Shown here piece by piece: positions 21,048 to 24,488 of a stretch of 64,000 nt of DNA. The stretch is from an uncultured Alphaproteobacteria bacterium (GTDB taxonomy: Bacteria > Pseudomonadota > Alphaproteobacteria > JAPOUT01 > G958296285). Position 1 is the stretch's first letter, and every line of letters begins with the position of its first letter. The stretch covers positions 1,604,999 through 1,668,998 of the forward strand of contig OY282459.1 in NCBI GenBank assembly GCA_958296285.1. The letters are read 5' to 3'. Position numbers and translations under genes: made by a program. The notes beneath the pieces are model-generated. The model was not told where the DNA came from and did no database searches. It was given only the letters and a program-made list of their open reading frames with translations.

Positions 21048-22523
21048 ATGAGCATGTCAAAGGGATCAGCGAGCAATCATTCCAATGGGGCGTCTGGAGA
21101 CGCGGCGTCTCGGCAGATGCGCGCCATTTTGGACAAGCAGCGCGAGGCGCAATTGGCGGAGGGCGCGCCTTCGGCGCGGAAGCGGATAGATCGGATCAAT
21201 CGGGCGATTGATCTGTTGGTTCGTTATCAAGATGAGATATGCGATGCGATGTCTTCGGATTTTGGTCATCGGAGCCGCGAGCAGACTCTTCTGACGGATG
21301 TGATGGGTTCGCTTGGGACATTGAAGCACGCGCGGATGCATCTTCGCAGTTGGATGCGTTCTCAGAAGCGCTCGCCGATGTTTCCGTTGGGTTTATTGGG
21401 GGCGAAGGCTCGGGTTCATTATCAGCCGAAGGGCGTTGTTGGGGTCATCAGCCCATGGAATTTTCCTGTTAATCTGACTTTCGCGCCGTTGGCGGGGATA
21501 TTCGCGGCGGGGAATCGCGTGATGATCAAGCCGTCGGAATATACGGAGGCGACATCGGCATTGATGGGGAAGATGTTCGCGGAGGCTTATGACGAGACTG
21601 AGGCTGCGATTTTTCCTGGCGGCCCTGATGTTGGGACGGCGTTTAGCGGTCTTCCTTTTGATCATCTTCTTTTCACTGGGGGGACGTCCATTGCGTATCA
21701 TGTGATGCGGGCGGCGTCTGAAAATTTGGTTCCTCTGACGTTGGAGTTAGGGGGGAAGTCTCCTGTGATTTTGTCTGAGAGCGCGAATTACAAGAACGCG
21801 GCGACGAAGATCATGACGGGGAAGATGATGAATGCGGGACAGATCTGCTTGTCGCCGGACTATGCTTTGATGCCTAAGGGTCGGGTGGATGAGTTTGTGA
21901 ACAAGGCGAAGGAGGCTGCGGGGGAGTTGTATCCGTCGTTGAAGGAGAATCCTGATTACACGTCTGTGATCAATCGGCGTCATTATGATCGTTTGCGGGG
22001 TTATTTGGATGACGCTCGTTCCAAGGGGGCGGAGTTGGTTGAGATCAATCCTTCTGGCGAGGATTTTTCGCAGCAGCCGCATCACAAGCTTCCTCCGACT
22101 TTGATATTGAATCCGTCTGATGAGATGCAGGTGATGCAGGACGAGATTTTTGGTCCTTTGCTTCCTGTGAAGAGCTATAGTCATGTTCGGGAGGCGATAG
22201 ACTATGTGAATGATCATCCTCGTCCGTTGGGCTTGTATTATTTCGGCGATGATTCTGCGGAGCGTGATGAGGTTTTATCTCGGACGACATCTGGCGGCGT
22301 GACGGTGAATGATGTGATCATGCATGTATCCATGGATGACTTGCCTTTTGGCGGGATAGGTCCGAGCGGCATGGGGGCGTATCATGGTCATGAGGGATTT
22401 TTGGAGTTCAGTCATAAGAAGGCTGTCTATACGCAGACGAAGCTAGACAAGGCTGCGGGGATGTTTCGCCCGCCTTATGGCGATGCGACTCGGAAGTTGT
22501 TGAAGGGTCAGATCACGCGCTAG
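21048..22523 (+). CDS. NAD(P)-dependent aldehyde dehydrogenase (coniferyl-aldehyde dehydrogenase-like)
   Basis: ELGGKSP, catalytic GQICLSPDY, FGGIGPSGMG. Start moved to the ATG at 21048, directly after a GAGGAGG RBS. The upstream 43 codons of the tracked ORF are hydrophobic junk. Confidence 0.85.
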   Translation: MSMSKGSASNHSNGASGDAASRQMRAILDKQREAQLAEGAPSARKRIDRINRAIDLLVRYQDEICDAMSSDFGHRSREQTLLTDVMGSLGTLKHARMHLRSWMRSQKRSPMFPLGLLGAKARVHYQPKGVVGVISPWNFPVNLTFAPLAGIFAAGNRVMIKPSEYTEATSALMGKMFAEAYDETEAAIFPGGPDVGTAFSGLPFDHLLFTGGTSIAYHVMRAASENLVPLTLELGGKSPVILSESANYKNAATKIMTGKMMNAGQICLSPDYALMPKGRVDEFVNKAKEAAGELYPSLKENPDYTSVINRRHYDRLRGYLDDARSKGAELVEINPSGEDFSQQPHHKLPPTLILNPSDEMQVMQDEIFGPLLPVKSYSHVREAIDYVNDHPRPLGLYYFGDDSAERDEVLSRTTSGGVTVNDVIMHVSMDDLPFGGIGPSGMGAYHGHEGFLEFSHKKAVYTQTKLDKAAGMFRPPYGDATRKLLKGQITR

Positions 22524-22759
22524 TCGGAATCACGCTGATATAGACCATCGCCCTTGGAGTCCCCTACCCAAAGAGAATTACCATCGGCGCCACGCTTAAT
22601 GTCGCCGGGGTTGATCTCTTGGGATAAGCCGCGCGCGAGCTTGGCTGTCATTTCTTTTTCCCTGCGTTTGAAAGGAGTCTCAAGTTCCACATCGGGGAAG
22701 GGCGGAACCTGCCCAATTCTTGCGAGCGCCGTATCCATTTCTTTCCAGTTTGCTGCCAT
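22520..22759 (-). CDS. Hypothetical 79-aa protein, last gene of the MotA/MotB-like cassette
   Basis: Start overlaps the stop of the MotB-like gene (shared coordinate 22759). No recognisable motif. Confidence 0.4.
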   Translation of the reverse strand: MAANWKEMDTALARIGQVPPFPDVELETPFKRREKEMTAKLARGLSQEINPGDIKRGADGNSLWVGDSKGDGLYQRDSD

Positions 22760-23484
22760 CAGCGTGATTCTACAACCATTTCCTGCGTGATGATTTTCGG
22801 ACTCACCCGAAACTCCACGCGCCGAGACGCCCTTTTATCCTCGGTGTCCCGCCAATTTTTCACCAAGCGGCTGGACGATAAGCCGTTCGCCGTCACCTTC
22901 TCCAACAGCCATGCCTCGCGCCTTCTCACGGCGTAAAGCGAGAGGCAGAACTCCATCACAGCGCGGGTGCGATTCTGCGAGAGTTCCATATTCTTAAAAT
23001 ACGCTTCCCTGCGAGACGCCGCGCCCTCCCATTCTGAGGAAGTATGCCCTTCTATCCGAATTTCTTCAATATCGTCCCTCCATGCGCGTTTGTCTAGAAC
23101 GCGAATGTAGCGAGGCCAGAAATCCCTCAAAATTTCTTTAAAGCGCAATCGTATCTCCGCGCTTCCTTTGGGGAACAGCACGCTCGGCGATCGGAAGCGG
23201 ACTGTCGGTCCCTTTTCCTCTATTTCGGCGTCCCATTTGTCCAGGTCTTTGTCAAACTCTTCCATCAGAGCTTTGTAAATTTCCTTCTGATGAATAAGCC
23301 ATGCCGCGACAGGCTTTCCCAGCGCTTCTTCCAAAGTTTTTCTCTCCTCTGCCGACTGCGCCTGAAATTGGATATAGACAATTGCGATCAGCAGAAAGAC
23401 GAGCATAAGAACGCTCATCAGGTCGGCGATAGAAATCCAGCTTTCCTGCTCTTCCTCTGTTGTTTTGAGGGGGAAGCGGATCAC
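22759..23484 (-). CDS. MotB/OmpA-like stator-type protein (N-terminal TM with conserved Asp, C-terminal OmpA-like peptidoglycan-binding domain)
   Basis: TM segment ISIADLMSVLMLVFLLIAIVY (Asp in MotB-like position). C-terminal GHTSSEWEG ... YFKNMELSQNRTRAVMEFC ... ANGLSSSRLV ... ASRRVEFRV matches the OmpA/MotB PG-binding core. 4-nt overlap with the upstream MotA-like gene. Confidence 0.75.
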   Translation of the reverse strand: MIRFPLKTTEEEQESWISIADLMSVLMLVFLLIAIVYIQFQAQSAEERKTLEEALGKPVAAWLIHQKEIYKALMEEFDKDLDKWDAEIEEKGPTVRFRSPSVLFPKGSAEIRLRFKEILRDFWPRYIRVLDKRAWRDDIEEIRIEGHTSSEWEGAASRREAYFKNMELSQNRTRAVMEFCLSLYAVRRREAWLLEKVTANGLSSSRLVKNWRDTEDKRASRRVEFRVSPKIITQEMVVESR

Positions 23485-24488
23485 GGTTCCGCTCGTCCTG
23501 CATTCTGTTGCTCATCATCCGAGAGGCGGCGTTCAATACGTTTTATGCGTCTGATCTGTTCCTCATGCTGGCGTTCCATATCTTTTATCATACGTTCATA
23601 AGCTTCCGTGAAGCCGCGGGTTGCCGCTCCCAGGCGCTGGGCAGCTTCCTGTATAAATCCTTCTGTCTCATTGCTGATTTTGCCTATATTTTCTTGCAAG
23701 GTTTTTTGCGTGGCTTCCAAAGAAGATTTAAGAGAATCCATCAGTTCCTGAACCTCAGATTCAAGCTTCGGCACGGCGTTTTCGGCGACGCCCTTCAAAT
23801 CGGCAATGGATTGCAGAAGCGCTTCTTGCGTGCCATAGACGTCCTCCATTTTCTTCATATGTTTCGGAATGCTCCGCGCGCTTTCCTCTATGGCTTGGAT
23901 CGCTTGGTCTGTTTTCTCTATGCCTTTCAATGCCTTCTGAAATTCCTCAATGAGCAGCTTCCGAAATTCTCCGATGAGCAGGTCTAGTTGGATTTTGTAT
24001 TGATTCTGCCATTCAATCAGCCGATCTATGGACACTTGCAGCCTTTGAAAATTTTCCCCGAGAGCATCTCGGATTGCTTTCTCCACAGTTTTTAGGAAAA
24101 CCTCCATTTCTTTTCCTTCTTCTTCTTCTGCGCTCCTTTCGGGGAAGATTCCTAGCGCCATCAGAATCTTAAGGAGGGTTGCCGCGCCAAGCCCTGCGAT
24201 GCTTGTGAGGAACGCCACTTTCAGCCCCTCAAGGAGAGGCGGCACGCTTTCTTTGATGTCTCTGACGTTAAAATCCCAGAGACCGACAAAAATCCCGACA
24301 AATGTTCCGAGAATGCCGAGACTTGTCAGCAGCGTTGGCGTTTGGGCGCGGATGTCTTTGGTTTTTCCCCAGGTGATTTTTTCCTGCAAGCGCAGGACAG
24401 CGAAGAGAAAAATGATTGCGATAACAAAGACAAAAGACCGCGCTACGGGATTTGCGAGCAGCGTTGATAGAATTGATAGAGTTGTCAT
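23481..24488 (-). CDS. MotA/TolQ/ExbB-family proton-channel-like protein with ~200-aa C-terminal coiled coil
   Basis: Three TM helices (VARSFVFVIAIIFLFAVL; LLTSLGILGTFVGIFVGL; VAFLTSIAGLGAATLLKILMALG) in MotA/TolQ arrangement. The remainder is E/K/Q-rich heptad coiled coil. Confidence 0.7.
   Translation of the reverse strand: MTTLSILSTLLANPVARSFVFVIAIIFLFAVLRLQEKITWGKTKDIRAQTPTLLTSLGILGTFVGIFVGLWDFNVRDIKESVPPLLEGLKVAFLTSIAGLGAATLLKILMALGIFPERSAEEEEGKEMEVFLKTVEKAIRDALGENFQRLQVSIDRLIEWQNQYKIQLDLLIGEFRKLLIEEFQKALKGIEKTDQAIQAIEESARSIPKHMKKMEDVYGTQEALLQSIADLKGVAENAVPKLESEVQELMDSLKSSLEATQKTLQENIGKISNETEGFIQEAAQRLGAATRGFTEAYERMIKDMERQHEEQIRRIKRIERRLSDDEQQNAGRAEP

Follow-up and report, generated by a model that had tools for sequence, protein, structure and literature searches.

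Within the 64,000-nucleotide stretch analysed here (hereafter the window; positions 1,604,999 to 1,668,998 of contig OY282459.1, from an uncultured Alphaproteobacteria bacterium), a three-gene cassette derives from type II Zorya and lacks its effector; it is made of an intact and selected ZorA-ZorB pair (ZorAB) and of a species-specific orphan third open reading frame (ORF) of 79 amino acids (aa), which we call p79. Few anti-phage systems are as widespread or as actively studied as Zorya. In the canonical type II system, the tail of ZorA recruits and activates ZorE, which nicks DNA, and phage resistance hinges on ion flow, on peptidoglycan binding, on the tail, and on ZorE. Since the cassette has no ZorE, this gene set cannot perform the nicking step, and canonical defence has presumably been lost. 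The motor is intact and preserved by purifying selection, which indicates that it still does something in its ZorE-less state. Our favoured reading, with a probability of roughly 0.55, is that of a motor retained for a ZorE-independent role after the loss of canonical defence.

An earlier note on this DNA had read the cassette as a MotA-like channel protein with a long tail, a MotB/OmpA-like protein and a small third protein of no recognised family, and had offered Zorya as a lead. The three ORFs were present where it had placed them, all on the minus strand (Table 1), and the ZorA and ZorB profile searches that it had called for bore out the lead and sharpened it to the type II branch. The first protein matched the PADLOC ZorA2 profile with E=6.9e-49 and aligned with the 378-aa type II ZorA of the Protein Data Bank (PDB; 8vvi_F, E=5e-15), residues 131-293 of its tail being collinear with residues 191-352. 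Its N-terminus carries three hydrophobic segments (~17-35, 50-72, and 88-112), as the note had announced, within a three-transmembrane (3-TM) channel core spanning residues 1-115. There follow ~220 residues of helical tail, with a GENF...WQ motif at 144-161, a diverged C-terminal module around residues 283-300 (RLGAATRGFTEAYERMI) and a charged end of 35 aa. Every residue found invariant in a 31-sequence family alignment is kept, namely G58, G61, T62, F63, G65, G69, L85, L86, G88, A92, F93, S96, G99, W160, and Q161. On these alignments, ZorA appears architecturally complete, with a diverged effector-proximal end.

The second protein matched PADLOC ZorB2 over its full length (E=2.5e-79), and its residues 4-231 matched 8vvi_A (E=2.1e-46), the type II ZorB of PDB entry 8VVI, that is, the S. 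kujiense ZorAB complex (PMC11890865). The aspartate that the note expected in the TM helix is present as D21 (WISIADLM versus WISLSDMM). The OmpA-like peptidoglycan-binding domain keeps N165, L168, and R172, the counterparts of EcZorB N152, L155, and R159, whose mutation abolishes defence (PMC11946911); its Pfam OmpA-like match fell just under threshold (27.0 versus 27.2 bits). Type I (ZorABCD) and type III (ZorABFG) Zorya share with the cassette the motor principle of five ZorA for two ZorB (5:2), the long ZorA tail and a peptidoglycan-binding ZorB. In contrast, their profiles matched much more weakly (ZorA1 E=1e-15, ZorA3 E=7e-6, ZorB3 E=1e-6), and ZorC, ZorD, ZorF, and ZorG genes are absent here, the note having already found ZorC, ZorD, and ZorE to be lacking. 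NCBIfam also ranked ZorA2/ZorB2-type families first for the two proteins. Its equivalog cut-offs, tried as a test of membership, were set aside as uninformative: the cassette scored 108.9 bits against 700 for ZorA2 and 197.5 against 400 for ZorB2, and two complete loci described below, L002 and L004, also fell short (107.8, 188, 183.7, and 222 bits; ZorE 124.7 against 600), showing that these cut-offs do not discriminate.

No trace of the effector was found when the ZorE profile was run against the six-frame translation of the 64-kb window (best E=0.5). A homology search with the ZorE of L002 returned 16 relatives, none of them on this organism's contigs of 1.73 Mb, 1.72 Mb, and 104 kb, and the database searched does hold its ZorA, ZorB, and p79. 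L002 is the locus with the closest ZorA homologue in a full operon context: it encodes a ZorA of 473 aa (P0004), a ZorB of 252 aa and a ZorE of 267 aa (PADLOC ZorE2 E=9e-49, DUF8245 + HNH). The window ZorA is 40% identical to P0004 over residues 13-269, and the two ZorB are 55% identical. The closest relative overall is L003 (metagenome ERZ22155170, ctg25891l), with 54% identity for ZorA (P0003) and 62-64% for ZorB. Like the cassette, L003 has a GTGA junction between zorA and zorB, no ZorE and a similar GC content (56%). It differs in having two genes only, with no p79-like ORF, in a ZorA of 241 aa that lacks the distal tail and the module, and in its neighbours, an sdh operon and a peptidase S58 gene. 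A neighbour-joining tree of 66 ZorB from the fetched loci placed the window and L003 as sisters, L002 next, and then L004, a ZorABE locus from Cellvibrionales. Since two ZorE-less loci are thus sister to the complete L002, the comparison indicates that the cassette arose from a type II Zorya system that lost zorE. Comparing the window with L003 gave a dN/dS of 0.17-0.22 with dS saturated, which precludes dating this loss. Synteny of the flanking aldehyde dehydrogenase gene (aldh) with L002 was considered as a sign of deletion and rejected, the two proteins being 25% identical.

The cassette shares with the type II systems of S. kujiense (8VVI) and E. coli the 3-TM core, the GENF/WQ motif, a collinear tail, the TM aspartate of ZorB and its peptidoglycan-binding domain fused directly to the TM helix, as well as the gene order and the overlapping zorA/zorB junction. 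It differs from them by the absence of ZorE (a DUF8245 + HNH nickase), by a ZorA of 335 aa with a strongly diverged module, and by p79 standing in the zorE slot. Truncation of the ZorA C-terminus, suggested by MAFFT and by the hidden Markov model (HMM) of the module, was ruled out by the collinearity with S. kujiense and by a shuffle-controlled test. In that test, the last 85 residues showed residual similarity to the module, with a mean pairwise score of 38 against 26+/-2.4 for shuffled sequences, and 0/500 shuffles reached 38; a 48-aa stretch of the ZorA end also aligned without gaps to L002 (RLGAATRGFTEAYERMI versus RLSGMAIEFSENYEPIL). The extra ~140 aa of the L002 ZorA are probably an expansion in L002. 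A segment of ~60-80 residues between TM3 and GENF is missing from the window ZorA and largely from L002 as well, and this short linker, being common to a complete system, is therefore not tied to the loss of ZorE.

Evidence that the motor is maintained came from three assemblies of the species with identical gene arrangement: the window, L001 (ERZ19489054), which is 98-99% identical to it, and L080 (ERZ19489113). Over the whole of zorA, we counted 17 synonymous and 6 non-synonymous substitutions (dN/dS ~0.11; binomial p<1e-4 versus neutral). Within it, the TM core (residues 1-115) showed 10 and 0 (dN/dS 0; p=1.6e-6), and the tail (116-335) 7 and 6 (dN/dS 0.23; p=0.01). The corresponding figures for zorB (residues 1-237) were 4 and 2 (dN/dS 0.14; p=0.024), and for p79 1 and 1 (dN/dS 0.29; p=0.40, not significant). 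The flanking genes gave 14 and 9 for aldh (dN/dS 0.19; p=1e-4) and 6 and 3 for ECH (dN/dS 0.15; p=0.007). No indel, frameshift or stop codon was seen in these genes in any of the three strains. Thus, zorA and zorB are kept by purifying selection, and the motor is maintained rather than decaying. All three strains already lack ZorE, which means that this selection acted in the ZorE-less state and argues against a purely inert relic.

An inert relic is the first alternative to consider: function would have disappeared with zorE, too recently for the ORFs to have broken down. Type II defence needs ZorE, and ZorAB by itself does not suffice (PMC11890865; PMC8565338). Other loci are in obvious decay, with split genes in L006, L066, L072, L020, and L034. 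The ZorA of L003 is still shorter and lacks the module, and the host genome is small (1.73 Mb). The ZorA module points the same way. This 75-residue C-terminal module (LDxELGxEL...SLSxxFVxDYxPL) scored 54-120 bits in 31/31 ZorE-linked ZorAs; because it co-occurs with ZorE, it may be the ZorE interface. The cassette, with 4 bits versus at least 54, has diverged from it. On the other side stand the substitution counts accumulated since the three ZorE-less strains diverged (17:6 in zorA, 10:0 in its TM core), the absence of indels and stops over 1.7 kb, dN/dS values equal to those of neighbouring housekeeping genes, and the conservation of the region upstream of zorA. We consider the relic unlikely on balance.

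Several points weigh against a retained role as well. ZorAB alone gives no phage defence, and alterations of the tail abolish defence (PMC11946911, PMC11890865), so that a ZorE-less pair has no known function. The module score of 4.0 bits in the window ZorA, like the 5.5 of L003 and the values of at most 8 at other ZorE-less loci, could mean relaxed constraint. The selection evidence amounts to 33 substitutions among three closely related strains. The synonymous rate of zorA is unusually high and may reflect recombination, and the purging of leaky or toxic channel variants could leave the same signal as selection for function. Lastly, direct inspection covered 64 kb, so that a divergent effector may be encoded elsewhere; we consider a ZorE gene elsewhere in the genome quite improbable.

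We then asked how common ZorE-less pairs are. Forty-nine of the fetched loci could be counted, that is, those whose zorA is a single adjacent ORF and whose downstream sequence is long enough. ZorE directly followed ZorB in 31 and not in the remaining 18. Thirteen of these 18 (L017, L028, and 11 more) form a separate, independent clade in the ZorB tree, always lodged in one conserved polysaccharide-synthesis locus on low-GC (35-45%) metagenome contigs, with the order GT2-GT2-GT1-zorA-zorB-(ATP-grasp)-hexapeptide acetyltransferase-(GT2)-Wzx flippase. Pairs of this kind were listed at L017:2829-10856, L028:2814-11959, L019-L022, L029-L038, L046, L048, L050, L066, L073, L074, and L079. ZorA in this clade measures 301-313 aa (L048, at a contig end, has 278 aa, and in L020 and L034 the gene is broken into two ORFs) and is conserved end to end at 42% identity between sub-clades; a few copies are frameshifted. 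These pairs resemble the cassette in being of ZorA2/ZorB2 type, with a short ZorA, no ZorE and a diverged module, whereas the glycosyltransferase, acetyltransferase, and Wzx surroundings are foreign to the window. Their apparent retention over long evolutionary distances indicates that ZorE-less ZorAB2 pairs can be evolutionarily stable. Literature searches on orphan ZorAB, or on ZorAB in polysaccharide loci, returned nothing relevant. Elsewhere among the fetched metagenome loci, L064:166-2398 and L065:1300-3967 have the order zorA-zorE-zorB instead of the usual zorA-zorB-zorE.

By homology to solved ZorAB complexes, the motor would be built of five ZorA around two ZorB, with ZorB anchored to peptidoglycan via its OmpA-like domain. 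Proton flow past Asp21 of ZorB would drive the ZorA ring, the ion drive being likewise assumed from homologues, and the ~220-residue tail would carry a signal into the cytoplasm. The motor may signal to an unlinked or unrecognised partner, or it may serve an envelope-related role. A wider proposal is that ZorE-less ZorAB form a selectively maintained class re-used beyond nuclease-based immunity, in which p79 would be a lineage-specific partner of the tail, for instance as a five-copy ring, and the Bacteroidota-like clade pair would serve its polysaccharide locus; this we regard as speculative and rather doubtful. In current models, ZorAB is a sensor and transducer, useless without its soluble nuclease. 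A selected ZorE-less ZorAB would, if true, imply an effector-independent or trans-acting output, or co-option for another envelope function, and the independent polysaccharide-locus clade points toward an effector-independent output or co-option as well. Automated searches for defence systems drop such loci as incomplete. Should the cassette be merely a disarmed remnant, it would represent ordinary erosion of a defence system in a reduced genome.

What p79 is bears on two further alternatives. Searches of Pfam, NCBIfam, PADLOC, and PHROGs assigned it to no family, the best match to a PDB sequence was not significant (E=0.81), and a word-indexed search of 5.8 billion proteins returned p79 alone. 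An exhaustive phmmer/HMMER scan of 1.84 billion representatives retrieved six large repeat proteins (E 7e-8 to 1e-3). Residues ~25-75 of p79 align to one period of a ~52-aa repeat (...TPWD...SQExxPxGIxFxxDGTKLYVxGSxxDxIYQY). The repeat is present 16-65 times in four of the six, and Pfam places two of these four, P0144 and P0147, among beta-propellers of lactonase and Kelch type; P0146 contains it five times and had only sub-threshold NHL and gluconolactonase-type (SGL) matches. Residues 8-79 also matched a different repeat in P0148 (BLASTP E=2e-8). A first repeat profile gave 32.8 bits on p79, a value that we do not trust because its members had been chosen with p79 as query, which inflates it. 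An independently seeded profile gave 10.7 bits, ranking p79 first of 2001 against shuffles (best shuffle 6.1; p<0.0005). The Pfam NHL and Lactonase models did not match p79, and no other copy of the repeat was found in the window or in 78 fetched loci of other organisms, the p79 of L001 being the sole other copy scored. One repeat unit (25-75) is what p79 contains, the tandem blades (at least four) of a closed propeller not being present. It carries no nuclease motif. It also stops short of the position of the Zn-site residue His90 of ZorE and of the HNH domain (PMC13192584) and thus cannot be a nuclease. We conclude that p79 either stands alone as a single-blade protein or is what remains of a repeat-protein gene.

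p79 could be a genuine third component that replaces ZorE, for example, a single-blade subunit oligomerising on the pentameric ZorA tail, which would make the cassette a new Zorya subtype. Such a replacement would fit its place in the zorE slot with a TGATG junction, its genuine if remote similarity to a family of folded repeats, and the purifying selection on the ZorA tail (7:6, p=0.01). It would fit the coding-type codons too: p79 has a codon log-likelihood ratio (LLR) of 0.15 per codon, at the 15th percentile of in-frame chunks and reached by 0.05% of same-length out-of-frame chunks. The ORF is intact in all three strains, with 2 substitutions in 236 nt, the second-lowest density in the region. 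Yet, no free-standing p79 homologue was found. The 79-aa gene, the conservation of whose neighbourhood the note had proposed to check, turned out to be confined to the species: p79 is absent from L003 and from all 78 other loci, and since the sister locus lacks it, it is not a conserved partner. A single propeller blade does not fold alone, and the AlphaFold2 (AF2) model of p79 has a low confidence score (pLDDT 59). The last four codons of zorB, together with the p79 ribosome-binding region, form a substitution hot-spot that reads VESR, REAH or GEAR in the three strains, with 4/4 changes non-synonymous in 12 nt; in L001 and L080 the changes place GAGGG or GGGGG before the p79 ATG, while the window version leaves p79 without a Shine-Dalgarno sequence. 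A leftover repeat-gene fragment fits the data equally well. p79 is thus a species-specific orphan, not a conserved Zorya component, and a new subtype seems to us improbable. Likewise, the 'minimal or different stator-based system' suggested by the note was not established, the complete L002 showing derivation by loss of zorE, although purifying selection on zorA and zorB in the ZorE-less state keeps the 'different system' reading alive.

Alternatively, p79 could be a zorE stub, the 5' part that survived a deletion reaching up to the aldh stop, perhaps fused to other sequence. It lies in the zorE slot, its start overlaps the preceding gene just as that of zorE does in L002, L004, and L005, its N-terminus (MAANWKEMDTALARIG) aligns with the N-terminal helix of ZorE (end-free global p=0.011), and a ZorE subfamily profile ranked it 111/2001 against shuffles. 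In low-confidence AF2 models, predicted helix-helix-hairpin elements may be collinear, with an offset of +5; these models are weak on both sides here, that of the ZorE N-terminus falling below 50 in the compared region. The full ZorE profile scored -2.1 bits, and local alignment gave p=0.10-0.17. The repeat matches p79 much better (E=2e-8 for P0148; p<0.0005 for the repeat profile), and ZorE N-termini did not themselves match the propeller-type repeat. Altogether, a zorE stub is a poor candidate.

A housekeeping stator or energiser (MotAB, TolQR-Pal, or ExbBD) is contradicted by best matches that are overwhelmingly ZorA2/ZorB2, against weak, sub-threshold Pfam hits to MotA_ExbB (18.1 versus 22.9 bits, E=0.0024) and MotB_plug (E=0.1), and we dismiss it. 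MotAB/PomAB, TolQR, and ExbBD belong with the cassette to the superfamily of ion-driven 5:2 motors with an Asp in the TM helix of the B subunit, and MotB has an OmpA-like domain, but they lack the long cytoplasmic tail and work with FliG, TolA/Pal or TonB. The NCBIfam MotB models gave at most 39 bits against cut-offs of at least 259. Tol and Exb families were absent from the NCBIfam and Pfam match lists, and the second protein is OmpA-like, with no TolR/ExbD-type periplasmic domain. The family searches thus refuted a Mot/Tol/Exb identity; the Tol/Exb orthology or missing TM aspartate that the note had named as grounds for abandoning its view were looked for, and neither was found. As it had also stated, no flagellar, Tol, Pal or Ton/TonB gene adjoins the cassette, whose neighbours are aldh, ECH, and a DEAD-box helicase gene.

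The order zorA-zorB-third gene on one strand, with overlapping junctions, matches the geometry of L002, L004, and L005, and codon usage was of coding type in all three frames, with 14 housekeeping genes of the window as reference. The note had argued for translational coupling from overlaps of 4, 1, and 4 nt. The argument stands for the 4-nt GTGA shared by the zorA stop and zorB start and for the 1-nt TGATG overlap of the zorB stop and p79 start, but it was overstated for the third, in which the TAG of p79 overlaps the convergent aldh stop codon on the opposite strand (22520-22523), and which therefore says nothing about coupling. Coordinates are collected in Table 1.

Table 1. Features of the cassette and its immediate surroundings (window coordinates)
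Feature	Coordinates	Strand	Basis
zorA-like gene, 335 aa, ATG start	23481..24488	minus	ORF and ZorA2 profile match
zorB-like gene, 241 aa, GTG start inside GTGA	22759..23484	minus	ORF and ZorB2 profile match
p79, 79-aa orphan ORF, ATG start, in the zorE slot of canonical operons	22520..22759	minus	ORF, codon usage
In-frame 24-nt tandem duplication in zorA tail (LLIGEFRK/LLIEEFQK)	23934..23981	minus	Pairwise alignments
Substitution hot-spot, last four zorB codons and p79 ribosome-binding region	22762..22773	minus	Three-strain alignment
zorA upstream region	24489..24640	minus	TATAAT 24530-24535, Shine-Dalgarno GAGGGGG 24497-24503
Aldehyde dehydrogenase gene (aldh)	20919/21054-22523	plus	Pfam Aldedh E=9e-85

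The duplication gives the zorA tail 8 residues that P0003 and P0004 lack; it is present in all three strains and would shift the register of the coiled coil. The ~150 nt 5' of zorA carry 1 substitution among the three strains, and farther upstream the sequence is rearranged by repeat elements. A promoter function of the TATAAT located there is suggested by its sequence; a scan for consensus promoters and terminators did not call it and yielded nothing useful.

The host genome is ~1.73 Mb and has a GC content of 55%. A two-piece alpha-tmRNA of alphaproteobacterial type lies at 11262-11639 (Rfam, 219 bits). Strand asymmetry is strong and near uniform over most of the window (1-64000), with a plus-strand GC skew of ~+0.2 and an AT skew of ~-0.25, and the skew dips locally at putative islands, the Zorya cassette (23-25 kb) among them.

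Two minus-strand genes beyond zorA, at 25968-27716 (582 aa) and 24817-25953 (378 aa), encode paralogous proline-rich proteins. The C-terminal domain of both weakly matches bacterial Josephin-type deubiquitinases (PDB 9f5t BpJOS, E=0.003; 9g7g PaJOS). The 582-aa paralogue carries the motif DCGMHAINAF; in the 378-aa one, Ser replaces the presumed catalytic Cys. Such proteins look like eukaryote-directed effectors, which suggests that the bacterium may have a host-associated lifestyle. Inverted repeats of ~120 nt (24667-24785 and 27840-27959) flank the two genes in the manner of a composite element, and their core (GGGGCTAGCCCC) occurs in 7 copies in the window, where chance would give 0.09. Strains differ by rearrangement of the intergenic stretch that separates these genes from zorA. 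The window and L080 contain a gene for a DUF4760 membrane protein (28053-28565; Pfam E=5e-21; phrog_2284) that L001 lacks, this indel (27840-28766) being bounded by repeat elements.

Further along, lower-GC islands at 38574-39683, 44619-45680, and 53951-56990 hold restriction-type genes, including an HSDR_N-like gene, an Mrr_cat endonuclease, an EndoVII/His-Me finger nuclease, an N6/N4 DNA methylase, and a methylase-HNH fusion. The ZorE profile gave 0 matches among these nuclease and methylase genes. Their presence shows that this small genome still invests in defence against foreign DNA.

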